Assembly (NCBI GenBank): GCA_024711295.1
Contig: JANJTB010000039.1
Span: 8,319-72,318 of the forward strand
DNA: 64,000 nucleotides
Direction: 5' to 3'
From: a bacterium
Lineage (GTDB): Bacteria > Bacteroidota > Ignavibacteria > Kapaibacteriales > UBA2268
Below the pieces are notes generated by a model that was not told the origin of the DNA, did no database searches, and saw nothing but the letters and a program-made list of their open reading frames with translations. Position numbers and translations under genes: made by a program. Each line of letters starts with the position of its first letter. Position 1 is the stretch's first letter. Positions 5,662-18,941 of this stretch are shown here, piece by piece.

Positions 5662-6735
5662 GTGTTAATATTGAGTAAGTTTTTGTTTTATATATGTTTA
5701 TCGCTTTTATGCTGTTTGACGGTTATTAGCTATGAAGCCAAATCTAATGTAATTGTCAACGAAAAGTCCCACAATTTTGCAGTTTTGTCGGTGAATACCG
5801 ATACTAAATTTTCGAAAGACATTCTGGTTATCTTGCGAGAAAAAAAATCTCCCCCACCTAAAATTAAAACAGACTATAAGTACAATTTTATACATAATCT
5901 TAACAATTTAGATTCATCTGCTATGGCGGGTGATGGCAACTACGTAATTTTCAACAAAGACTCCGAAACAAATATCCGAATCGAGTCACTGAAGCCCGAT
6001 ACCTATTATATCCTTGATACTTACAAAGCTTCGGGCAATTCAAAGATTGCCGAGAAAATTGCTTCGCTCGAGTTCACTACTCTGGCAGAGCAACCTCTGC
6101 GTCAGGTTCAGATGATTCTTTGGGCTGATGTTACAAAAAACAGCTTCAAGCTGTTATCCGAGGGGGCACAAAGCCAAAACGTTATGTATGTGGTAAGCAA
6201 GGGCGAAAACGATTTCGTTCCGGTTGATGCTACATCGTACAAGGCAAATGCCACTTTCGGAAAAGGTTTTGAAGCCGCTAACGGTGTCTATGTTGTTAAG
6301 TCTGATGCTGATACTTCAAAGATTTTTTCCGTAAACGGTTTAGAGCCGGGAACTGCTTATTACGTAAGGGCTTATGCTCTGAATGGTAAAGGGCAGTCTG
6401 TGAATTATCACGAAGAAGTGGTGAAAAAAAGAAATTCTGTTAAAATTATCACAAAACTCGAAACTCCTGTCATCAAAAGCTTTAATTGTCCTCAGACTGG
6501 GGCTTGCAGAGTGGAGTGGGCTAAAGTTAAAGGAGCTGATACTTATATCCTTGAGCTTTCGAATGATGACAAATTCGAAACTCTACACGAAATTTACAAC
6601 GCTCTCGATGTCGGTGATGTGGATTCTTATGTTTTTGACGAATTAGAGAGTAATCGTACTTACTTCATTAGAATCAAAGCGTTAGGCAAAGTTGCCGAAT
6701 CCGACTATTCTAATCATCTAAGTAAAAAACTGTAA
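5662..6735 (+). CDS. Hypothetical exported protein with fibronectin-III-like segments
   Basis: N-terminal hydrophobic signal/anchor. Repeated FN3-like signatures (LKPDTYYILDTYKASGNS; LEPGTAYYVRAYALNGKGQS; RTYFIRIKALGK). No recognisable enzymatic motif. Confidence 0.45.
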   Translation: MLILSKFLFYICLSLLCCLTVISYEAKSNVIVNEKSHNFAVLSVNTDTKFSKDILVILREKKSPPPKIKTDYKYNFIHNLNNLDSSAMAGDGNYVIFNKDSETNIRIESLKPDTYYILDTYKASGNSKIAEKIASLEFTTLAEQPLRQVQMILWADVTKNSFKLLSEGAQSQNVMYVVSKGENDFVPVDATSYKANATFGKGFEAANGVYVVKSDADTSKIFSVNGLEPGTAYYVRAYALNGKGQSVNYHEEVVKKRNSVKIITKLETPVIKSFNCPQTGACRVEWAKVKGADTYILELSNDDKFETLHEIYNALDVGDVDSYVFDELESNRTYFIRIKALGKVAESDYSNHLSKKL

Positions 6736-6905: not shown

Positions 6906-9900
6906 ATGAAACGTTTTATCTCGTTTTTGATAGTGGGAGTGCTTGCTACTCTGCTTTCTATCAATGAGGTATTCGCTCTGCCACCTTCTACGCAGGCATA
7001 TAACGTTACGTTTACCACTTTGGCAAACGGAAAGTTAAGAGTCATTGCGACGAAGGGTAACGGAACACATCGTGCTATAGCGATTGAGCAAGGTGCTACT
7101 GTTACCGGCTTGCCATCCGGTACTTATACCGGCGATGCGGATTACTTGAATGCTCCTGACATAGATGGTGCCGGAGCTGGGCTTGCACGCATTGTATATT
7201 TTGGTACAGACAGAAGAGTGGATATCGAAAACCTCACACCGGGTACTCAATATACCGTTAAGGTATTTGAGTATAATGTTGACGGATATAATGTAGCCGA
7301 TGCTACAAATAACCCCCGGTCTTATACCACATTGCCGGCAGCACCTGCTTTAACAGCTGCTACCGCAATTACTTCTTCCGGCTTTACAATTAACTGGAAT
7401 GACCCTGCCGGTACTTGGGATGGATTCGAAATTACTGTCGGTCTGACAAGTAATTTCTCCTCTTGGGCAGCGGGTTGGAATCCATACAGTGTTGGAGCAG
7501 CTGTAAATTCTCAGGCATTTACAGGCAATACAAATACTACATATTTCTACAGAATAAGGTCAACACTTGGTAGTGCTCGCAGTGCTTGGAATACTGCGGC
7601 TACTTCTGTTACTACTTATCCTGTAACTGCTACATTAGCTGAAGCAAGTGGCGCAGTATGTTTGGGTAATTCCTACTATCTTACTCCAACCGGTCCAACT
7701 CCGGGTGATGGCACTAACGAACATAAATTTAAAGTTTATGATAGTGGCAATAACTTAGTTAATCTTGGTGGATTTGCATATACTGTAATTCCACTTACTC
7801 CTTTATCAGTTGGTACTTATACCTATACTGTTGCTACTGTAAGCAACAAAACAGGTGAAGAAACTCCTGAAAGGACTACATTTATATTATATGTTAATGA
7901 GCCCGGTACTACTGCTGTAGTTGGTGACATTGCTGATATTTGTGCACTTGGCACTTATACACTAACTCTTACAGGTATCCAACCTGTAAACGGCGAAGGT
8001 ACATGGACTTATTCAGGTCCTGAAGGTGCAATTATCGCTGATGATAATTTGTTCAACTCAGAAGTTGAATTAGTTAATTACGGTGTATATTCTTTCACAT
8101 GGACTATTACATCCGAAGGTTGTAATACTACTTCTGACGAAGTAACATTTAATTACTATGCTACTCCTGATCTTGCAGTTGCAGGCGATGATGACTACTA
8201 TTGTGGTCTCACTGGTTTGCTTGATGGTAATGATCCCGTAAACGGTGAAGGTACTTGGACTTATTCAGGTCCCGGCACTATAACTTTTGTTGACGATAAT
8301 CTTTATAATACAGAATTTACTGCATCAACCTATGGAATTTACACATTTACATGGACAATTGCAAACGGTACCTGTACTCCAAATTCTGATGAAGTTGTAT
8401 TAACAATAGACCAGGAACCTACCGAAGCTGTTGCTGGTGAAGATGATGGTATATGCGTACCGACAGGTACAACTACAATCACTTATACTTTAGCAGCTAC
8501 TCCTGTAACTGTTGGTTCAGGTGAATGGACTGCTGTAGGTGGAGCAACATTTGATGATGAAACAAGTCCAAATGCAGTTGTTACAGTTCCTACTGTTGGT
8601 ACTTATACATTGACTTGGACAACATATTCACCATATTATGATGATGAAAGTGAGTCATCATGTCAACCAAGTTCAAGTGAAGTAGTTTTAGTATTCAGCC
8701 CTGCTATTGACCAGGCTGAAATTAATGAAACTACTGTGCTTGAAAGCATTGAATGTGGTGATTTAGATGTTCAGTTAATAGCTAATGACCCTGCTGTAGG
8801 TAATGGCTTGTGGACTGTATCAGGTCCTCAGGGTGCAACATATGAACTCTTCTTCGAAGATTTCAGCGATGCAATCTTTGTTACCGATACTTATGGCACA
8901 TATACTTTAACTTGGACAATTTCTGACCCGAACGGTGTTTGCGAAGATACTTACGAAGCAATCACTTTTGAGTTGGCTCCTGTTCCTGACCCTGCCATTA
9001 TTCCTAACAAAACTGAAGTTAACTTTGCTTGTGGCAAAACTACTACTTTAGTTGCTCAAGAGGTTAATGTCGGTACTGGTACATGGACAGTTAATGAAGA
9101 AACAGCTCCCGAAGGTGCTCAATTCTCATTTACAACCAACATTAATGCCAATACAGTAACATTTGTCACTGATACTTATGGTGCTTACAACTTTACATGG
9201 ACTGTCGTAGGTTGTACTCCTAATAACTCTGACAATATCACTGTAACATTCTATAATGAAATGGCTGGTTGGACTGCAGGCGAAGACCAGACAGCATGTT
9301 TGGGTGTTGACTTACCTATGACAGGTTCTACTAATCCGACAGTTTATACTGAAGGTATTGGCAATCCTGTTCCTAATGGTGAGTGGATAAAGGTTTCCGG
9401 ACCTTTTGGTGTTGTTGACTTCACTCCTGACAGATTTACATATAATGCCACTGCAGATTTCCCTGCTATAGGTACTTATGTATTGGAATGGAGAGGTTAC
9501 AACGGTCCTTGCGTTGTTAGCGACACTAAAACTGTTGTTGTTGTTGAGTCCGAAGTTGTTACATTCAACGATTTAGAGTTCAGCTACTGTAACAATGAAT
9601 CAAACTTAACTGCTTCATTATCAGCTACACCAACAGGTGGTACTTTTAGTGGTTCAGGTGTTTCAGGTGATATATTTAGCCCATTCGGACTAAATGCAGG
9701 TACTTATACTTTAACATATACATACAATCAACCTGCAGGTTGTACTTTGTATGACTATGCTTCTGTTGTTGTTACTGCTCCTACTGTAATCACTTGGACT
9801 AATACTTATGAACTTTGTGAAAATGAAGGAATTAACTTAACTGAAGCTTCACCATCAGGTGGTGTTTATTCAGGTGATGGTATAATGGAAATTGGAGGTC

Positions 9901-12900
9901 AATATGGTATTTATCCTACAGGACCAGGTACATATACTATAACATATTCTTATGAAAATGTAGATGGTTGTACTTCGGTTGCGGAAAATACTTATGTTGT
10001 TTATCCTTTACCTGTAGTTTCATTTGATCCTGAAACTCCAACAATAGTTTGCCAAAACAGTGGTGTGATTGACTTTACTGAATTTGTTAGCCCAATGGGT
10101 GATGCGACTTGTGCTCAAAGTGACATCCTACAGCTAATTAATGATACTGAAGTTTATGCTTTTACTGTTTATGATGGTAGTACACTTAGTAATCAAAATT
10201 GTGGTACTTTTGATCCTAATTTTGAAGGACCGGGTACATACACAATCACTTACTATTATCGTGATGTGAATACTTGTATTAACACTGCTACTCACGTTAT
10301 TGAAGTTCAAGCTACACCAGATGTTTATTTTAATATTGGTAATGAAGAATATTGTGTGAATGACGACACAAATGTTGACTTGATGACTTATATCTCGAAT
10401 TATGATTTATGTACTGGTGGTACTTGGACATTCGGTGGACCAGGCGTTGACGCTCAGGCAGGCACATTCAATCCAAGTATGACCGGACTTACCGAGAGCG
10501 GACCTGTTACAATCAATTATACCTATGAATGCGGTTTTTGTACAGTTGAGGGTTATGCAGAAGTATTTATTGAAGTTCCGACAGCAATTGAATTCGGTGA
10601 TCCAATATTTGTATGTAATACTGCTGACGATATAGTACCATTAACTGGTTATGCAACGCCAACAGACGGTGAATTTATTGGCGAAGGTATTGTATTGGAA
10701 GAAGGTAATTACTCATTTGACCCATCATTGGTTCAACCGGGTATTCATACAATAACTTATACATACACTACATTTAAAAATGAGAGTGAAATTGTATTAT
10801 GTACAGTATCGTCAACATTCGAAATAGAAGTATATGCATTACCTGTTGTTGAGTTTGTAGAAGCTCCAACAATAGTTTGCGGTAATACAGATTACTTCTC
10901 ATTCGAAACTTACGTTTCACCAGAGCCAAACTGTATGCCGGTAGGTCACGAACAAGAAATCCCAGGCGGAAATGGTGAGTTTACATATAGCGGTGAGTTT
11001 GGCGGCTATTGTGGAGAATTTAACCCAAGTCAAGTTGGAGTTGGTACTTATACTGTAACATATACATATACTAATGAAAACAATTGTACAGACTTTGCAA
11101 CACACGAATTCGAAGTTGTTGCACCACCGGTAGTTACTTTCGATGGAGAAGGTACACCTACATTCTGTACTACATATTCAGATGGTATTGACCTTACTAT
11201 ATTTGCATCTCCGGTAGGTGGTACATTTAGTGGTTCGGGCGTGCAGGGCGACTTCTTTACACCTTCAAGTGTAGGCGTTGCAGGTACATACACATTAACT
11301 TATACAGTTACAGATCAACTAACAGGTTGTACAAACTTTGATGAAATGGAATTTGTATTAGTTGCTCCTACTCCTATCACATGGACAAACACTTACGAAG
11401 TATGTGCTAACGGTTCAGTTATTGAACTTTCAGGTGATGCGTTACCTGTAGGTGGTACTTACAGTGGTACAAATGTATCAGGTGGCAACTTTGACCCAAC
11501 AGGCTTGAGCGTAGGTCAATATACAATAACTTACACTTATGATAATGATTACTGCGTAACAACAGCAACTAAGATTGTTTATGTACGTCAAAATCCTGAT
11601 ATTTCATGGCCCGACTATCCAAACAATAACACATTCTGTGTACAAAGCACAAGTGTAGATATCAGAAATGCAACACCATCAGGTGGTTCATTCACTATCA
11701 TACCTAACCTTGGTCTTGAAATCACAGGTAACCCATTCGACCCATCAGCGGTTGGTGTCGGTACATACACACTTACTTATACCTATATCAATGTATTTGG
11801 TTGTGTTGATGTCGAAACTAAAGTTATCAGCATTATTGATGAGCCAACTTCAGTTGCATTCAGCAATCCTGAAGGTTCATTCTGTAATGATGATGAAACA
11901 GGTTTTGATTTGACAACTTTGGCAAGCCCTGCCGGCGGTACATTCGCAGGCGCAGGTGTTGAAGGCACTACATTTAGCCCATTTGGATTAAATGCAGGAA
12001 CTTATACATTGACATACTCATTAACTCATGCATGTGGCGATTATTTCGATACAGCAGAGTTTATCGTAGTTGCTCCTGCAACAATAGTATGGGAACTTAA
12101 CACAGCAACAGTATGCGCAACAGAAACATCATTTGATATCGGTGGCGCTACCCCTACAGGTGGTACTTACAACGGTGGTTCAATCATTCTTGACGGAACT
12201 ACATTCAACCCATCTACAGCAAGTGTTGGTCTTCATGTATTTACATACACTTATGTTGATGGTCCTTGCGAATCAGTAGCAACATTAGAAGTAGAAGTTG
12301 TTCCTGCTCCGGTTGTAACATGGACACAAACATTTGCAGATTACTATTGTGCTAATGACAATAGTGGAATCGCTCTTACAGGCGCTCCTGCAAACGGTCA
12401 GTACACAGTAGAACCATCTACAAATGCACTGTCATTAGGTACATTTACTCCTTCAATGGCAGAAGCCGGTACTTACACAATTACTTATACAGTAACAATC
12501 GGCTCATGTTCTGACTATGCAACTCAGACAATCGTTGTAGCTCCACTTCCTGAAGTATCAGCAGGCGTTTATGAAAATGTTTGTATAACAGCTTCTTCAT
12601 TCACACTTACAGCAGGTACACCTGAAGGTGGCAATTACTCAGGTAACGGTGTATTATCAAATGTATTCAACCCGGCTTCTGCAGGCGTTGGTATCCATAC
12701 ATTGACATATACATACCAAGATCCTGTAACATTGTGCTACAACAGTGCAACAACTACAATTCAGGTAGATGAACAACCAGTTATCTCCTGGACAGCAACA
12801 TACGGTCCATACTGCGAAAGTGACGAGTCAACTTATCAATTCAATGCTCAGGCATCAATTGGTATCGGCGAGTACTCAGGTCCTGGTGTTGATGGTGGAT

Positions 12901-15203
12901 ACTTCTCACCAAGCTTAGTAGGTGCAGGTACTTACACAGTTACTTACACAGTTACTAACGGTACATGTATGGCTTACGAAACTAAGACAATCGTAGTTGA
13001 TGAGCAACCAGTTATCTCCTGGACAGCTACATACGGTCCATACTGTGAAAGTGATGAAAATTCATACGAACTTTCAGCTTATCATACAGTAGGATTCGGC
13101 GAGTACTTAGGTGCAGGTGTATCCGGTGGATACTTCTATCCTGGCGAAGCGGGTGCAGGTACACACGTAATTACTTACACAGTAACTAACGGTACATGCT
13201 CAGTTTACGAAACTAAGACAATCGTAGTTGACGCGCAACCAGTTATTTCCTGGACAGCTACATACGGTCCATACTGCGAAAGTGACGAGTCAATGTATCA
13301 ATTCAATGCTCAGGCATCAATTGGTACTGGCGAGTACACAGGTACAGGCGTATCCGGTGGATACTTCTCACCAAGCGTAGCAGGTGCAGGTACTTACACA
13401 GTTACTTACACAGTAACTAACGGTACATGTATGGCTTACGAAACTAAGACAATCGTAGTTGACGAGCAACCAGTTATTTCCTGGACAGCTACATACGGTC
13501 CATACTGTATTGACGACACCGATGGTTATACTCTTGGTGCATCAGCAACAGTAGGCATTGGAGCATATTCAGGAAATGGCGGAGTATCAGGTGGTACATT
13601 CACTCCAAGTATTGCGGGTGTTGGTACTCATACCATTACTTACACAGTAACTAATGGTACATGCTCTGATTACGAAACTAAGACAATCGTTGTTAATCCA
13701 TTACCAACAGTAAGTGCAGGAACTTATGCTGCAGTTTGTCAAAACACAGCAACATTCACACTTACAGCAGGTACACCTTCCGGTGGTACTTACTCAGGTA
13801 ACGGCGTAGTATCGAATACATTCAACCCGGCTTCTGCAGGCGTTGGTGTACATACATTAACTTACGTTTACACAGATGAAGCAACAGGTTGTACAAACTC
13901 TGCAACAACAACAATCACTGTAAATGCTCTAATTACAGCAAATGCAGGTGCAGATGATGATGCAGAACCGAACGAACTTACATTTACATTGAACGCGAAT
14001 GTTCCTACTCCTGGCACTGGTTTGTGGACAGTTGTTTCTAGCCCTGCTAACTCAAATGTTAACTTTACCGATGCAACACTCTACAACACATTCGTTGAAG
14101 TAGATAAGTCAGGTGATTACACATTCCGTTGGACAATTACAAATGGTGCTTGTTCAAGCTTTGATGATGTAGTAATTAGCTTTGATGCCGGTGCAGTACC
14201 AACTAAATTGGCATTCAACTTTATACCTACACAGGTATCAGGACAAACATTCAGTCTTAATGTAAGAGTTCTCGACCAAAACGACAACATGATTAATACT
14301 CCAAATGCTGTTACATTTACAGTTACAGTTTATGAAGGTGATGCTACATTCTCAAGTACAGTTACAGGTGTTATTGCTGCAAATACAAGCAATAAGTCAG
14401 TTTCAGTTACTTTGAATGCAGATAATCCTAACGTAGGTGCAGCTGATATTCAATTGTTGGCAACAGACGACGCTAACTTACTTGAAGATGGATTCAGCAA
14501 TTGGTTTAACCTTGTTGCTACAATACCAACAACACAAGCTTCAAGTCTTACAATAGTCAGAGGTAGTACTTCATTTGATCTATCATGGTTAAGAGGTAAC
14601 GGTGACGGTGTAATCGTACTTGCTCAGAAGAGTGCATTCACAGTTGCAAATAATCAACCTCAACAGGGTATTTCATATAATAACGAATCTAACTATGGTG
14701 TGGCTGGTAATCTTGTTACAACCGGTATTTATGCAACTTACAGCGGCACAGGTACATCATTCACTTTGGGTAACCTACAAAATGACGGTGTTCGTTATGC
14801 TGTTAAAGTTATGGAATATAAGAGCAGTGGTGTATTGAGATCATACAACCGTACAAATGCTGCAAGTAATTCAAACAACCGTTCTTCAACTACATTGAAG
14901 GGTGGCGTAAATGAGGAATTACCATTTGTTGGTGAAAATATCTTAAGTTCATCATTCATTACTCCTAACCCTGCACGTGACTATATCTCTCTTACAGTTG
15001 ACCTTACTCAGGAAGCTGAATTGAGAATAGCTGTTTACACTGCAGATGGTAAAGAAGTATTGTTACCTGTTAACAACCTCAACTACAACTCAGGTCGTCA
15101 TAACTTCAATATACCGCTTAAGGGCTTGGCAGCAGGTGTTTACTCTGTTGTAATCACTACCGGTAACGAACTTATCATGGACAACGTTGTGGTAATGCCA
15201 TAA
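6906..15203 (+). CDS. Giant (2765 aa) cell-surface adhesin-like protein. It has a signal peptide, FN3-like N- and C-terminal modules, ~30 tandem SprB/Ig-like ~80-aa repeats, and a T9SS C-terminal sorting domain.
   Basis: Signal peptide MKRFISFLIVGVLATLLSINEVFA. FN3-like motifs (NLTPGTQYTVKVFEYNVDGYN at the N-terminus; GVRYAVKVMEYKSSG near the C-terminus). Dozens of repeats carrying GTYT(L/I)TYTY...C signatures reminiscent of SprB/PKD-like Ig repeats. C-terminus ...ITPNPARDYISLTVDL...GVYSVVITTGNELIMDNVVVMP is typical of a type-A T9SS CTD. Confidence 0.85.
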   Translation: MKRFISFLIVGVLATLLSINEVFALPPSTQAYNVTFTTLANGKLRVIATKGNGTHRAIAIEQGATVTGLPSGTYTGDADYLNAPDIDGAGAGLARIVYFGTDRRVDIENLTPGTQYTVKVFEYNVDGYNVADATNNPRSYTTLPAAPALTAATAITSSGFTINWNDPAGTWDGFEITVGLTSNFSSWAAGWNPYSVGAAVNSQAFTGNTNTTYFYRIRSTLGSARSAWNTAATSVTTYPVTATLAEASGAVCLGNSYYLTPTGPTPGDGTNEHKFKVYDSGNNLVNLGGFAYTVIPLTPLSVGTYTYTVATVSNKTGEETPERTTFILYVNEPGTTAVVGDIADICALGTYTLTLTGIQPVNGEGTWTYSGPEGAIIADDNLFNSEVELVNYGVYSFTWTITSEGCNTTSDEVTFNYYATPDLAVAGDDDYYCGLTGLLDGNDPVNGEGTWTYSGPGTITFVDDNLYNTEFTASTYGIYTFTWTIANGTCTPNSDEVVLTIDQEPTEAVAGEDDGICVPTGTTTITYTLAATPVTVGSGEWTAVGGATFDDETSPNAVVTVPTVGTYTLTWTTYSPYYDDESESSCQPSSSEVVLVFSPAIDQAEINETTVLESIECGDLDVQLIANDPAVGNGLWTVSGPQGATYELFFEDFSDAIFVTDTYGTYTLTWTISDPNGVCEDTYEAITFELAPVPDPAIIPNKTEVNFACGKTTTLVAQEVNVGTGTWTVNEETAPEGAQFSFTTNINANTVTFVTDTYGAYNFTWTVVGCTPNNSDNITVTFYNEMAGWTAGEDQTACLGVDLPMTGSTNPTVYTEGIGNPVPNGEWIKVSGPFGVVDFTPDRFTYNATADFPAIGTYVLEWRGYNGPCVVSDTKTVVVVESEVVTFNDLEFSYCNNESNLTASLSATPTGGTFSGSGVSGDIFSPFGLNAGTYTLTYTYNQPAGCTLYDYASVVVTAPTVITWTNTYELCENEGINLTEASPSGGVYSGDGIMEIGGQYGIYPTGPGTYTITYSYENVDGCTSVAENTYVVYPLPVVSFDPETPTIVCQNSGVIDFTEFVSPMGDATCAQSDILQLINDTEVYAFTVYDGSTLSNQNCGTFDPNFEGPGTYTITYYYRDVNTCINTATHVIEVQATPDVYFNIGNEEYCVNDDTNVDLMTYISNYDLCTGGTWTFGGPGVDAQAGTFNPSMTGLTESGPVTINYTYECGFCTVEGYAEVFIEVPTAIEFGDPIFVCNTADDIVPLTGYATPTDGEFIGEGIVLEEGNYSFDPSLVQPGIHTITYTYTTFKNESEIVLCTVSSTFEIEVYALPVVEFVEAPTIVCGNTDYFSFETYVSPEPNCMPVGHEQEIPGGNGEFTYSGEFGGYCGEFNPSQVGVGTYTVTYTYTNENNCTDFATHEFEVVAPPVVTFDGEGTPTFCTTYSDGIDLTIFASPVGGTFSGSGVQGDFFTPSSVGVAGTYTLTYTVTDQLTGCTNFDEMEFVLVAPTPITWTNTYEVCANGSVIELSGDALPVGGTYSGTNVSGGNFDPTGLSVGQYTITYTYDNDYCVTTATKIVYVRQNPDISWPDYPNNNTFCVQSTSVDIRNATPSGGSFTIIPNLGLEITGNPFDPSAVGVGTYTLTYTYINVFGCVDVETKVISIIDEPTSVAFSNPEGSFCNDDETGFDLTTLASPAGGTFAGAGVEGTTFSPFGLNAGTYTLTYSLTHACGDYFDTAEFIVVAPATIVWELNTATVCATETSFDIGGATPTGGTYNGGSIILDGTTFNPSTASVGLHVFTYTYVDGPCESVATLEVEVVPAPVVTWTQTFADYYCANDNSGIALTGAPANGQYTVEPSTNALSLGTFTPSMAEAGTYTITYTVTIGSCSDYATQTIVVAPLPEVSAGVYENVCITASSFTLTAGTPEGGNYSGNGVLSNVFNPASAGVGIHTLTYTYQDPVTLCYNSATTTIQVDEQPVISWTATYGPYCESDESTYQFNAQASIGIGEYSGPGVDGGYFSPSLVGAGTYTVTYTVTNGTCMAYETKTIVVDEQPVISWTATYGPYCESDENSYELSAYHTVGFGEYLGAGVSGGYFYPGEAGAGTHVITYTVTNGTCSVYETKTIVVDAQPVISWTATYGPYCESDESMYQFNAQASIGTGEYTGTGVSGGYFSPSVAGAGTYTVTYTVTNGTCMAYETKTIVVDEQPVISWTATYGPYCIDDTDGYTLGASATVGIGAYSGNGGVSGGTFTPSIAGVGTHTITYTVTNGTCSDYETKTIVVNPLPTVSAGTYAAVCQNTATFTLTAGTPSGGTYSGNGVVSNTFNPASAGVGVHTLTYVYTDEATGCTNSATTTITVNALITANAGADDDAEPNELTFTLNANVPTPGTGLWTVVSSPANSNVNFTDATLYNTFVEVDKSGDYTFRWTITNGACSSFDDVVISFDAGAVPTKLAFNFIPTQVSGQTFSLNVRVLDQNDNMINTPNAVTFTVTVYEGDATFSSTVTGVIAANTSNKSVSVTLNADNPNVGAADIQLLATDDANLLEDGFSNWFNLVATIPTTQASSLTIVRGSTSFDLSWLRGNGDGVIVLAQKSAFTVANNQPQQGISYNNESNYGVAGNLVTTGIYATYSGTGTSFTLGNLQNDGVRYAVKVMEYKSSGVLRSYNRTNAASNSNNRSSTTLKGGVNEELPFVGENILSSSFITPNPARDYISLTVDLTQEAELRIAVYTADGKEVLLPVNNLNYNSGRHNFNIPLKGLAAGVYSVVITTGNELIMDNVVVMP
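12765..13695 (+). repeat. Four in-frame tandem copies of a 231-nt (77-aa) unit inside the giant adhesin gene. Copies 1 and 3 are ~90% identical at DNA level, with >100-nt near-identical stretches at the copy boundaries.
   Basis: Copies begin near 12768, 12998, 13228 and 13458 (gatgaRcaaccagttatYtcctggacagcNacatacggtccatactg...). The protein repeat is VDEQPVISWTATYGPYCESDE...GAGTYTVTYTVTNGTCMAYETKTIVV. Flanking ~70-aa blocks at 12541-12760 and 13690-13910 are also related (APLPEVSAG... / NPLPTVSAG...). Confidence 0.85.
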
Positions 15204-15240: not shown

Positions 15241-15281
15241 GCGGGCTTTACTCATTGAGTAGAGCCCGCTTTTATTTTTGG
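15241..15281 (+). terminator. Rho-independent terminator after the giant adhesin gene
   Basis: gcgggctttactc / gagtagagcccgc stem (13 bp, 1 mismatch), 3-nt loop, followed by ttttatttttgg. Confidence 0.55.
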
Positions 15282-15347
15282 GAAAATCAAATAAAAAAAA
15301 GTTATAATATTCTATAACTTTTGAATTATTCATATATAAAAATTCTT

Positions 15348-16934
15348 ATGATGAAGAAAATCACTTTTATCATAGCTCTCTTTATTTGCTTTATCTCCTT
15401 TGCTTACTCAAGTGATAAGGATAAATTAATCGAGTTTCAGGCACAGAAATTTAAGTATATGCTCGAGGTTGCAAGTCAGAATTATCCGGATTCTCTTGAT
15501 ATAACTGCTATCAGTGATAAAGCTTTTGCTGCATTAATGCAGGCAGTTGACAAGGAATCTTTCTATTACAACAAACCAAACATGAAACTTGTCACAGAAA
15601 GCAATAAAGGTGTAAGCTACGGAATAGGTGCGGAGCTGGTCAGTGTAAGGGATTCACTTTATATTATTCAGATATTCCCTAATACACCTGCGTACGAAGC
15701 AAATCTTGAAGTAGGAGATATAGTATTGTCTGTTGACGGCAGGTCAACATTAAAGATGATGAAAGTTGATGCAGATAAACTTGTATCCGGAGACTCAGCC
15801 ACGAGCGTAACTCTGGAAATAAAGAATGTAATAAGCGAAAAAATAAGAAAAGTAAAGCTTATCCGAAAAGATGTACCCAACAGAAGCTTGACTACAGCAT
15901 ATTTTTATCCGAAGTCTGATATAGGTATTTTTGTTCTGAACAGATTTTCAGCAAAGGCCGCTGAGGAATTTCGACAGAAAGCAGAATTGTTTATAAGTCT
16001 AGGAATGAAACGACTAATTATTGATGTCAGGAATAATCCTGGTGGTTTCATGGTGATGGTAGATGAGATACTTGATATGCTGATTTCCGGTAACAGATTA
16101 TTGACAAAAGTAGTTTCTGGGAATAAAGAGTTTAACTCGGAAGTTTACTCGATGAATGGTGGGTTTCTCGAAAAAATTCCTGTTGTTGTGATTGTCGACG
16201 AGAACTCTGCATCAGGTAGTGAATTGTTGGCAGGTGTTGTACAGGATTACGACCGTGGAATAGTTGTTGGTAAAAGGTCTTACGGCAAAGGTTCAATCCA
16301 AAGGATATGGTCTATGAACGACTCTACAGGATTTAAGCTAACCGTAGGTAAATATTTAACTCCATCAGGCAGAGATATTCAGAAGAAAGCCGGAGAAAAT
16401 ATATCAATAGAGCCAACACTTGACACAAATATTAAGTTTGATGATATTCAAAATCAGATTAACAAATTAGGAGGTATTGCTGAAGTAAAAATATATAAAT
16501 CTACTTCAGGAAGACCGATTATCGGTGGGGGAGGAGTAACTCCTGATTATTTTGTAGATGCAGATACTCTTACTCAGTTAACCAATTTGTTGATTCGAAA
16601 AGGACTTTATTTTGAGTGGGCAATAAGCTACAAAAAAAAGCATGGAAAAGAACTAAAAGAAAAATATGGCAATGATTATTCGAAATTTAATTTAGATTTT
16701 CAGATTAATGATGAAATGTTGCGAGAATTTGCTAATTTTGCACTTCAAAATAAGGTATGGAATAATGAAATGTTTACGGCAGACAAATCTTATTTCATAA
16801 ATTATATGAAAGCGAGCATAGCAAATGTAATTTGGGGATATGATGCATTTTCGGAAGTTATGTGTATCGTGGATAAGCAAATTACAGCAGCAATAAAAAA
16901 GTTACCCGAAGCAGAACAAATGATTTACAAATAA
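15348..16934 (+). CDS. ctp: S41-family C-terminal processing peptidase (tail-specific protease) with a PDZ domain
   Basis: Signal/anchor KKITFIIALFICFISFA. PDZ-like GDIVLSVDG. S41 motifs IIDVRNNPGG, ...ENSASGSELLAG, RSYGKGSIQ (catalytic Ser/Lys regions). ATG at 15348 is preferred over the upstream in-frame Met at 15321. Confidence 0.85.
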   Translation: MMKKITFIIALFICFISFAYSSDKDKLIEFQAQKFKYMLEVASQNYPDSLDITAISDKAFAALMQAVDKESFYYNKPNMKLVTESNKGVSYGIGAELVSVRDSLYIIQIFPNTPAYEANLEVGDIVLSVDGRSTLKMMKVDADKLVSGDSATSVTLEIKNVISEKIRKVKLIRKDVPNRSLTTAYFYPKSDIGIFVLNRFSAKAAEEFRQKAELFISLGMKRLIIDVRNNPGGFMVMVDEILDMLISGNRLLTKVVSGNKEFNSEVYSMNGGFLEKIPVVVIVDENSASGSELLAGVVQDYDRGIVVGKRSYGKGSIQRIWSMNDSTGFKLTVGKYLTPSGRDIQKKAGENISIEPTLDTNIKFDDIQNQINKLGGIAEVKIYKSTSGRPIIGGGGVTPDYFVDADTLTQLTNLLIRKGLYFEWAISYKKKHGKELKEKYGNDYSKFNLDFQINDEMLREFANFALQNKVWNNEMFTADKSYFINYMKASIANVIWGYDAFSEVMCIVDKQITAAIKKLPEAEQMIYK

Positions 16935-16953
16935 AGATATTTTGGAGAATATA

Positions 16954-17796
16954 ATGAGTACAACAAAAAAAATTATATTATGGGTTGCAGCAATTGTTTT
17001 AATGGTAGTCATAGTGATATATCAGCGAGCAACTGGCCCGACATACCCGCAAAAAGGTTCAATGGAACTTAGTGGATCGGAGATAAATTATAAATTGCTT
17101 CGGTCCCACGAAATAGGAATGAATGCACCTGTAGAGGTTGTTGCTCCTGATAAAGCGGTTATTGGCAAAATTAAAATTAAAAGGTATAAAAGCCATGATG
17201 AATGGTCAGAACTTGATATGATTCGCGAAGGTGATTTGTTGAAATCTGAACTTCCTGAGCAGTTGCCTGCAGGTAAAGTAATGTACCACATTTTTGTTGG
17301 CAAGGATGATAATAACTTAACAGCACTTACCCCTGAGCCTATAGTTCTAAGATACAAAGGTGTTGTACCGTTATGGATTTTGTACCCTCACATTGGATTT
17401 ATGATTTTATCATTTGCTTTTGCTATGCGTGTTGCTTTGGAAGCTGCATTCAAAGGCAGTGAGGTGCTAAAAATGTCTTATATTACATTGGGATTATTTG
17501 CATTTGGTGGATTAGTTCTCGGACCATTGGTACAGTGGTACGCATTTGGTGCTTTTTGGACTGGTTGGCCATTTGGAAAAACTATCTTACATTTTGGTGA
17601 TTTGACTGATAACAAAACACTTGCTTCAATTTTAATCTGGATATTTGCAATTATTCGTATCAAAAAGCATCCTAATCAAACATGGTGGGCTTGGTTGGCT
17701 ACACTTGTAATGATAGCAGTATATCTTATCCCGCATAGCATGTTAGGCTCGGAAATTGATTTCAGAGAAGTTGAAGCTCAAACAGGAGTAAACTAA
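16954..17796 (+). CDS. Integral membrane protein of unknown function, with an N-terminal anchor, a ~130-aa extracytoplasmic segment and a multi-pass C-terminal region
   Basis: GGAG Shine-Dalgarno 7 nt before the ATG at 16954 (MSTTKKIILWVAAIVLMVVIVIY). Several hydrophobic helices in the C-terminal half. 19-nt gap from ctp and 2-nt gap to the next gene suggest an operon. Confidence 0.5.
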   Translation: MSTTKKIILWVAAIVLMVVIVIYQRATGPTYPQKGSMELSGSEINYKLLRSHEIGMNAPVEVVAPDKAVIGKIKIKRYKSHDEWSELDMIREGDLLKSELPEQLPAGKVMYHIFVGKDDNNLTALTPEPIVLRYKGVVPLWILYPHIGFMILSFAFAMRVALEAAFKGSEVLKMSYITLGLFAFGGLVLGPLVQWYAFGAFWTGWPFGKTILHFGDLTDNKTLASILIWIFAIIRIKKHPNQTWWAWLATLVMIAVYLIPHSMLGSEIDFREVEAQTGVN

Positions 17797-17798
17797 TA

Positions 17799-18941
17799 AT
17801 GGAATTCTTCAAATATTATAATCCAACCAGAATAATTTTCGGTAAAAATACTATTTCTGAAATTGGAGAATACATCAAAGAGTATGGATATAATAAAGTA
17901 CTTATTCTATATGGTGGCGGCTCAATTTTTAGTAATGGAGTATATTCTGAAGTGTCAAAGTCCTTGCAACTCAATGATATTATTTCTGTCGAATTCGGGG
18001 GAGTACAGCCAAATCCTACTCTCGATCATGCAAGAGCAGCAATCAGAATTATTAAGGATAATAATATACAGGCAATTTTAGCTGTTGGAGGTGGTTCTGT
18101 AATTGATGAGGCTAAATCTATTGCTGCAGGTTGTTATGTTGATGATGTTTGGAATATCTTTGAGAAAACTGAATCAGTAAAGAAAGCTTTACCTTTATTT
18201 ACCGTTCTGACATTATCTGCAACCGGTACCGAAATGAATTCATTTGCAGTATTGTCTAATACTGAACAAAAGAAGAAATGGGCGTTTGGATCACCATTCT
18301 CATATCCACTTGTATCAATCATTGATCCTCAGGTTCAGATGACGCTCCCATGGCGTCAGACTGTGAATGGTGGTGTGGATGCTTTATCTCATATTATGGA
18401 ATTGTATTTCGCCGGTGATTCGGCAGAGGCAACACTTTCTATCAATGAAGCGCTTATGCGAACTGTAATCAAGTCAGTTGACGAACTTCAAAAGGACCCA
18501 AATGATTATGATTCAAGAGCAAATCTTGCATGGTCAGCTTCTCTGGCTCTTTCTGGATTAACTGCTGTCGGGATGAATGGTGGTGAGTGGAGCGTACACA
18601 GAATTGAACATTCAATAAGTGCTTATTACCCAAATGTTGCTCACGCCGAAGGTTTAGCTGTAATTTTTCCGGCATGGATGAAATACGTTAATAAACAAAA
18701 CTCAGAAAGATTTGAAAGATGGGCTAAGAATGTTTTTGGAGTAGATTCAATAAATGAAGGAATTGATGCCTTGATAAATACATTCAAAAGGTGGGGTGCT
18801 CCTACATCACTTGCCGATCTCAATGTACCATCTGAAATGATCGAACAAATCGCTCAAAATTCAATGCTTCTTGGAATAGTTGGGAATAAACATAAAATCG
18901 ATCTTGATGCCTCCAGAAGTATTCTTAACCTTGCATTATAA
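17799..18941 (+). CDS. Iron-containing (group III) alcohol dehydrogenase family protein
   Basis: Fe-ADH signatures: ILYGGGS, GGGSVIDEAKSIAAG (NAD(P)-binding GGGS motif). Conserved His-rich metal site region (...HIMELYF..., EWSVHRIEHS). Confidence 0.85.
   Translation: MEFFKYYNPTRIIFGKNTISEIGEYIKEYGYNKVLILYGGGSIFSNGVYSEVSKSLQLNDIISVEFGGVQPNPTLDHARAAIRIIKDNNIQAILAVGGGSVIDEAKSIAAGCYVDDVWNIFEKTESVKKALPLFTVLTLSATGTEMNSFAVLSNTEQKKKWAFGSPFSYPLVSIIDPQVQMTLPWRQTVNGGVDALSHIMELYFAGDSAEATLSINEALMRTVIKSVDELQKDPNDYDSRANLAWSASLALSGLTAVGMNGGEWSVHRIEHSISAYYPNVAHAEGLAVIFPAWMKYVNKQNSERFERWAKNVFGVDSINEGIDALINTFKRWGAPTSLADLNVPSEMIEQIAQNSMLLGIVGNKHKIDLDASRSILNLAL

Follow-up and report, generated by a model that had tools for sequence, protein, structure and literature searches.

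Probable lineage-specific and partly decayed tandem amplification of an Ig-like domain in a giant surface protein secreted via the T9SS by a Candidatus Kapaibacterium species

The nested repeats described here lie within a single, very large gene of a Candidatus Kapaibacterium species, in a stretch of DNA of 64,000 nt, the whole of which was analysed and is referred to below as "the window". The gene is an open reading frame of 2765 aa on the forward strand (positions 6906–15203 of the window), which hosts the entire array and whose frame is intact across 8.3 kb. According to its translation and to domain searches it encodes a giant secreted surface protein. The N-terminus (MKRFISFLIVGVLATLLSINEVFA) is hydrophobic and, judged by eye from the translation, resembles a signal peptide; it is followed by an fn3-like region, then by PKD-like repeats, and then by some 20 Ig-like units, each of about 77 aa, which display the pattern Cys...G.G...F.P...G.Y..TYT...C. 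A non-repeat region of 350 aa separates the Ig-like units from a T9SS type-A C-terminal sorting domain (CTD; Por_Secre_tail/TIGR04183, aa about 2685–2763, positions 14964–15194, forward strand), which scores above the curated cut-offs of both Pfam PF18962 (34.2 bits, cut-off 27) and TIGR04183 (30.1 bits, cut-off 23), i.e. the feature by which T9SS type-A cargo is recognized. The array sits in the membrane-proximal part of a T9SS-secreted protein. Such architecture suggests that the units likely serve as a structural spacer or stalk, which would set the distance between the N-terminal two-thirds of the protein and the outer membrane; that the protein is an adhesin is a reasonable guess from the same architecture.

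The units follow each other in the order B0, A, B1, B2, B3, B4, A', all in frame and on the forward strand. B0 (12303–12539, 79 aa) is an older B-like Ig unit with 51–60% nucleotide identity to B1–B4. It is followed by the Ig-like unit A (12540–12767; 228 nt, 76 aa), by B1 (12768–12998), B2 (12999–13229) and B3 (13230–13460, the nearest copy of B1), each of 231 nt or 77 aa, by B4 (13461–13694; 234 nt or 78 aa due to one extra codon), which is the most diverged of the B units, and finally by the Ig-like unit A' (13695–13922; 228 nt, 76 aa), of which A is a duplicate (163 of 228 nt identical, i.e. 71%, and 71% in amino acids). The array with the period of 231 nt was recovered both by a repeat search and by TRF (TRF score 1037), and nowhere else in the 64 kb does a 24-mer recur on the forward strand, which excludes chance as the source of the repeats. 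An earlier note on this DNA had described four in-frame units of 231 nt between two related flanking blocks. The layout, the frame, the start at 12768 and the presence of the flanking blocks agree with our analysis, but the starts of the later units, the length of B4, and the coordinates and size of both flanking blocks had to be corrected to the values given above. The nesting of four B units between A and A' is real, and it is larger than was claimed, as it reaches back into B0: the similarity between A and A' already sets in some 100 nt before A, within the final third of B0, and therefore the duplicated block is not exactly bounded by domains. This last third of B0 is identical to the end of B4 at 76 of 102 nt.

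In gapped alignments, B1 and B3, which are not adjacent, are 91% identical at the nucleotide level and 90% at the amino acid level, while B2 is 77% identical to B1 and 78% to B3, and B4 exhibits only 69–72% nucleotide identity to the other B units (69% to B1, about 72% to B2). Adjacent B units share 69–78% of nucleotides and 70–73% of amino acids. "Near-identical", the term used in the earlier note, hence describes the B1/B3 pair only; five of the six B pairs, as well as A/A', fall below the identity of about 80% that the note itself had set as the lower limit for its reading. The long stretch shared by B1 and B3 is there as reported: the string quoted for it matches exactly at 12921–13045 and 13383–13507, inside the longest tract of high identity on the forward strand (12920–13046, spanning the B1|B2 junction), in which 124 of 127 nt are identical to positions 13382–13508 at the B3|B4 junction (offset 462 nt). 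The longest perfect repeat comprises 47 nt (B1/B3, 12954–13000, offset 462), the second-longest 42 nt (starts of B3 and B4, 13235/13466, offset 231; part of it lies in the tract at 13382–13508) and the third 34 nt. The dS values between the units of the window are 0.22 for B1–B3, 0.47–0.56 for B2 against B1 or B3, and 0.81–1.17 for B4 against the rest, and dN/dS (about 0.25–0.4) is below 1 for all unit pairs.

Complete Ig-like domains of 77–78 aa are predicted for the repeats because the AlphaFold (AF2) model of B1, the one unit covered by structure prediction (with 16 units of the window protein as the alignment), is a confident small Ig-like beta-sandwich (mean pLDDT 90.6). Foldseek comparison of this model with the PDB returned generic Ig, cadherin, PKD and phage-decoration domains (TM 0.5–0.7, E at least 0.1), and the profile of 16 units matches one domain of a solved 1476-aa protein from Anabaena (7b5h, All3314) with E = 1.8e-12. 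The positions conserved in the units are structural: the Cys pair, the G/Y/T strand motifs and the unit ends. No curated model of Pfam or NCBIfam reached its cut-off on the repeat unit among the 16 units scanned; HYR (PF02494), Big_9 (PF17963) and Bact_surface_Ig-like (PF16403) gave only weak matches to a few of the 16 units (best E 0.001–0.008, below the cut-offs). Homologs of the repeat number in the hundreds in metagenomic proteins of Bacteroidota.

The best homolog of the window protein (P0001) is encoded by a Candidatus Kapaibacterium MAG (GCA_054685795.1), in a locus (L001) colinear with positions 1–24053 of the window. Except for the big gene, the sequences are 98–100% identical per 500 nt, which places them in the same species, and the flanks of the array are 99–100% identical. 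This was the only same-species genome found by whole-protein, C-terminal and array-segment searches of a set of 5.8 billion proteins. An exact-sequence look-up of the window protein returned no match, scans of genome and metagenome contigs with the C-terminal non-repeat part (426 aa) yielded no relative, and the same kind of scans with the alignment of B units found only distant relatives, together with second copies of two of the orthologs discussed below (L005 and L006 for P0003 and P0004, respectively).

In L001 the array comprises four units in the same order as in the window and without any indel. Each unit is most similar to the one in its own position; the positional identities are 97.0% for B1, 95.7% for B2, 99.6% for B3 and 98.3% for B4, so orthologous units are 95.7–99.6% identical, compared to 69–93% for paralogous ones. 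Between the two strains dS is 0.04 in the array part of the gene and 0 downstream, and the dS of the youngest pair of units (B1–B3, 0.22) exceeds the divergence of the strains by a factor of at least five. With the dS between units this far above the dS between strains, the four-unit array must long predate the split of the strains, and the number of units has been stable since then in this one comparison of two consensus assemblies. L001 contains many scattered 1-nt indels next to substitutions, and several of its genes are split, including the big gene (2370 + 368 aa); judged from these indels it is very probably an unpolished long-read assembly, which makes its repeat count more trustworthy.

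The same pair of strains differs strongly in another part of the gene. In codons 28–1678 (about 6990–11940 of the window) dS is 0.5–0.6 and dN 0.23–0.25, with sharp boundaries and near-identical flanks, which indicates that the N-terminal 5 kb was replaced by a deeply divergent allele and that the strain-level variation of this gene sits there.

Within the window array, synonymous differences (counted at codons that encode the same residue) are less frequent at the unit ends than in the middle. For B2–B4 they affect 7 of 39 codons at the ends against 11 of 17 in the middle (Fisher p = 0.001), and the contrast is also seen for B3–B4 (p = 0.007) and B1–B4 (p = 0.04). At 12 of the 22 positions at which the B units of the window and L001 carry substitutions, both alleles are found in other units. 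For instance, the window has a GCG codon at the start of B3, and L001 has it at the start of B4; likewise, TCAGTT is present in B2 of the window and in B4 of L001. The excess of shared alleles is significant against a null of uniform mutation (15.5%, p = 3e-5), but not against a conservative null based on sites that already vary between paralogs (39%, p about 0.13 by our own estimate). A GENECONV-like permutation test of run lengths in the four window units yielded uncorrected p-values of 0.02–0.09, which are not significant if six comparisons are allowed for. These observations are suggestive of occasional gene conversion of short tracts within the window array.

Four further proteins, from other genomes of Kapabacteria/Bacteroidota, have a similar architecture, and we counted their B-type units with an HMM of the B units. 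P0002 possesses seven (80–89% nucleotide identity), P0003 four (another assembly of this strain, L005, is 99.96% identical), P0004 one, and P0122 at least three (at least 3.3), as its contig starts inside the array. The number of B units thus does differ, but only between distant orthologs. Shared neighbors argue for positional orthology of three of the four: P0003, P0004 and P0122 have in common with the window the downstream genes for a Peptidase_S41, a protein of ~275 aa and an Fe-ADH, and on the upstream side the fn3-like gene is also found in P0003 and P0004 (the contig of P0122 starts within the big gene). For P0002 the downstream genes differ from those in the window and the contig ends shortly upstream. 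One A'-type unit follows the B array in all four distant orthologs, whereas an A-type unit before the array is absent from P0002 and P0003, the orthologs with upstream sequence, and for this reason A is regarded as a duplicate that arose in the lineage of the window.

In a codon-based alignment the B units are 69–93% identical within a genome, compared to 53–69% between genomes. Such grouping by genome may be due to amplification in each lineage independently or to concerted evolution. In P0003 the first 127 nt of B1 and B3 are identical and all 17 differences fall into the last third, while B4 contains a block of 64 columns identical to B1/B3 with dense differences on both sides; both are mosaics. 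Perfect repeats are longer in the relatives (81, 127 and 98 nt) than in the window, where the maximum is 47 nt, and the contigs of two of these relatives end in or beside the array. Since the units group by genome and exhibit mosaic tracts, and since the copy numbers differ, we conclude that, over evolutionary time, the array is remodeled by unequal recombination and gene conversion.

Based on these results, we propose that the array is very likely the product of a lineage-specific, partly decayed tandem amplification of one Ig-like domain, i.e. of the usual evolution of repeat proteins, and not a device for fast switching of length. The history outlined here is read, step by step, from the levels of identity. 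An ancestral gene with a B-like unit, A' and the C-terminal region would have gained a second A'-type unit, the present A; several B copies would then have been generated by unequal recombination between B-type units, and the most recent event would have been a duplication or gene conversion that made B1 and B3 alike. Afterwards the copies would have diverged under purifying selection into four distinguishable domains. The hierarchy of identities suggests that B4 may be the oldest of them, followed by B2, with the B1/B3 event as the last. The underlying process could be unequal homologous recombination or replication slippage, patched by gene conversion.

A crossover in the 124/127-nt tract would lead to the loss or gain of two units (462 nt), and a crossover in the perfect matches of 29–42 nt around the junctions (offset 231) would change the count by one. 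As the units are in-frame domains of 77–78 aa, recombination between them would add or remove whole domains without a frameshift, and on this point we agree with the earlier note. In E. coli, deletion of tandem repeats and homologous recombination require perfect matches over some tens of bases, and they are strongly depressed by mismatch repair and a divergence of a few percent. In-frame loss or gain of units by homologous or slipped-strand recombination may thus still be possible in principle, but it should be rare because adjacent units are only 69–78% identical and the perfect tracts do not exceed 47 nt. The outcome is a copy number that changes from one species to the next rather than one that switches within a population.

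The two most similar units of the window are separated by a diverged one (B1 and B3 with B2 in between), and this alternation is found, apparently independently, in P0003 (B1/B3 93%, B2/B4 79%); non-adjacent units also share the longest perfect matches in P0002. It is conceivable, albeit improbable, that the alternation is itself selected as a "damped" periscope design. If so, adjacent domains would be too dissimilar to misfold together, and length would change in rare steps of two units.

The interpretation given in the earlier note was that of a built-in cassette for length or antigenic variation, in which domains are gained and lost by RecA-dependent or slipped-strand recombination. As an active, periscope-like device, it would undergo such events frequently within populations. 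The domain-sized units in a common frame would suit such a device, and so would the 124/127-nt tract with its 42–47-nt perfect matches, the range of copy numbers among the orthologs (1, 4, 7 and at least 3), the contigs of relatives that break at the array, and the polymorphisms (GCG, TCAGTT) shifted between units in the two strains. However, the only pair at 91% identity is a non-adjacent one, and the divergence between neighbors is far greater than the few percent that impede recombination of repeats in E. coli. The only same-species genome retains the number and order of units, and even the youngest pair has a dS at least five times that of the strains. A published screen for proteins of variable length used a repeat identity of at least 80% (PMC8201768), which the adjacent units of the window do not reach. 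With the same four units in L001, dS above the strain split and low identity between units, an actively varying cassette appears unlikely.

The array had also been considered a likely hotspot of assembly collapse, and the four units or the likeness of B1 and B3 could in theory be due to collapse, expansion or a chimera. Repeats are classic sites of mis-assembly, and the contigs of two relatives do break at the array, yet such an artefact is extremely improbable here because the same structure was obtained in two independent assemblies, L001 having the same order, lengths and unit-specific substitutions; in addition, the frame is intact over the whole gene, and the longest perfect repeat, at 47 nt, is exceeded in length by short reads and by the larger k-mers that common assemblers use. 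An opposite extreme would be a static array, i.e. old duplicates that have not recombined since their origin and whose likeness is maintained solely by purifying selection on the fold. This would agree with dN/dS below 1 for all pairs, with the structural character of the conserved positions and with the non-significant run test in the window, but it is at odds with the clustering of units across the orthologs, which follows the genome and not the position, with the different copy numbers of the orthologs, with the similarity of unit ends that extends to synonymous sites, and with the unambiguous mosaics in P0003; we regard it as very unlikely.

Some other candidates were rejected. A simple duplication of two units ([B1B2] to [B1B2][B3B4]) does not account for the whole array, as B2 and B4 are 72% identical while B1 and B3 are 91% identical. 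A function on the minus strand, or non-coding repeats, does not agree with the period being a multiple of 3, the intact 8.3-kb ORF and dN/dS below 1. Phase variation by simple sequences relies on perfect repeats of 1–9 nt whose changes in number shift the frame or the promoter spacing at a high rate; here the period is 231 nt, the copies are imperfect and any change would remain in frame.

Comparison with known systems places the array that results from the proposed decayed amplification in a broader context. Periscope Proteins are bacterial surface proteins of variable length, such as SasG/Aap, Rib/alpha C, Sgo_0707 (SHIRT), Esp and CdrA (PMC8201768, PMC9704523); they were collected by a screen with the above threshold of at least 80%, and their length varies between similar strains, most where the identity of the repeat DNA is highest (PMC8201768, PMC9704523). 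The window protein is similar to them in that it is a single surface-targeted chain with tandem, independently folding domains of more than 50 aa (77–78 aa here), in which the array is placed between a long N-terminal region and a cell-anchoring C-terminus, with in-frame repeats, length steps of whole domains and a copy number that differs between orthologs. It is dissimilar in that its adjacent repeats (70–73% in amino acids) are below the threshold of the class and far below the 82–100% of SHIRT, in that the two close genomes do not differ in copy number (one comparison), and in that it belongs to an environmental Kapaibacterium and is anchored via the T9SS, as opposed to a sortase-anchored or type I-secreted protein of a pathogen. 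Because neither the identity of adjacent repeats nor the variation between strains agrees with the class, the window array is outside the Periscope class as defined, and is a very slow periscope at best. The orthologs P0002 and P0122 are nearer to this class than the window array.

The protein also resembles large T9SS cargo of Bacteroidota, for example proteins annotated as "T9SS type A sorting domain-containing protein" or gliding-motility-associated repeat proteins, with a putative signal peptide, long runs of Ig-like repeats of ~75–85 aa with a conserved Cys pair, and a Por_Secre_tail CTD. Unlike the Ig/PKD/HYR cargo of this phylum, its repeat is below the cut-off of any curated model, and its CTD is of type A, compared to type B (CHU_C) in many homologs listed as gliding-motility-associated. 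With arrays that undergo concerted evolution or unequal crossing-over it shares the greater similarity of units within than between genomes, as well as mosaic tracts and multi-unit (period-2) patterns, which are found in the window and in P0003. In contrast to such arrays, the homogenization is weak or old, and orthologous units are far more alike than paralogous ones.

For database annotation, the unit may be described as an Ig-like repeat of Kapabacteria/Bacteroidota T9SS proteins that is outside every curated family, and assemblies of relatives are prone to contig breaks at arrays of this kind. In-frame repeats of domain size are by themselves no sign of a variation device; the identity of the repeats and a comparison of strains are needed first. 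The locus provides a quantified example of the growth and decay of domain arrays in giant bacterial surface proteins, in which the copy number depends on the species (1, 4, 7), the array is stable between strains once its units are at about 70–80% identity, and the units are homogenized within lineages.

The neighbours of the large gene (ORF 6906-15203, plus strand), which codes for the 2765-aa surface protein, are conserved at the loci L003, L004 and L046 of more distant orthologues, as far as their contigs extend. Upstream lies a fn3/Pur_ac_phosph_N-like protein of ~355 aa (5662-6735), whose conservation refers to L003 and L004 only, as the L046 contig starts within the large gene. Downstream (15321-18941), genes for a Peptidase_S41 member (tail-specific protease-like), a ~280-aa protein and Fe-ADH are kept at all three loci. 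The G+C content is 43.5% in the array (12540-13922), 40% in the gene and 35% in the 64-kb window.

The period-2 pattern of the B units is common to the window and to the orthologue P0003, whose array (L003 6790-7704, aa 1264-1568 of P0003) shows 93% identity between B1 and B3 and 79% between B2 and B4. This array contains an obvious mosaic: B1 and B3 of P0003 do not differ over their first 127 nt, and the 17 differences between them are confined to the last third. Arrays with units more alike than those of the window do break assembly: contigs end at the array in two relatives, namely in the second assembly of the P0003 strain (L005, JARKQC010000084.1 positions 1-403), where the contig stops 172 nt before the first B unit, and at L046 (Ga0498945_001833 positions 1-760), where the contig starts within the array and the units are up to 92.5% identical and share a perfect match of 98 nt.

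The window protein contains two further kinds of repeats. A 12-nt mini-repeat, CAGTTACTTACA, which codes for the strand motif TYTVTYTVT, occurs in 2.7 copies within B1 (12925-12956) and again within B3 (13387-13418); such a repeat inside a repeat is possibly a small slippage site. A second family, unrelated to the B units (7900-9500, plus strand, aa ~340-880), comprises units of ~85 aa with the motifs G.G.WT....Y.F.WT and weak K319L-like PKD matches, and its members are much more divergent from each other than the B units are.

Comparison with L001, the locus of the same-species genome (GCA_054685795.1, BAAFTP010000052.1), revealed numerous isolated 1-nt indels adjoining substitutions (e.g. 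at window positions 606, 1053, 1265, 14038, 15093 and 15265-15786) and split genes: the orthologue of the large gene is broken into 2370 and 368 aa, and a TonB-dependent receptor gene into four pieces. Such a pattern is characteristic of long-read assemblies that have not been polished, rather than of real pseudogenes. The same nucleotide comparison delineated a divergent segment that takes up the N-terminal two-thirds of this large protein (~6990-11940, plus strand, codons 28-1678), with 67-85% identity, dS 0.53-0.61 and dN 0.23-0.25, between flanks that are 99-100% identical; downstream of these codons dS is <=0.04. Its edges are sharp, one directly past the signal peptide and the other within an Ig unit near 11940. 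The segment looks as though recombination had replaced it with a deeply divergent allele, which implies that strain-level variation of the surface protein resides in ~6990-11940 and not in repeat number.
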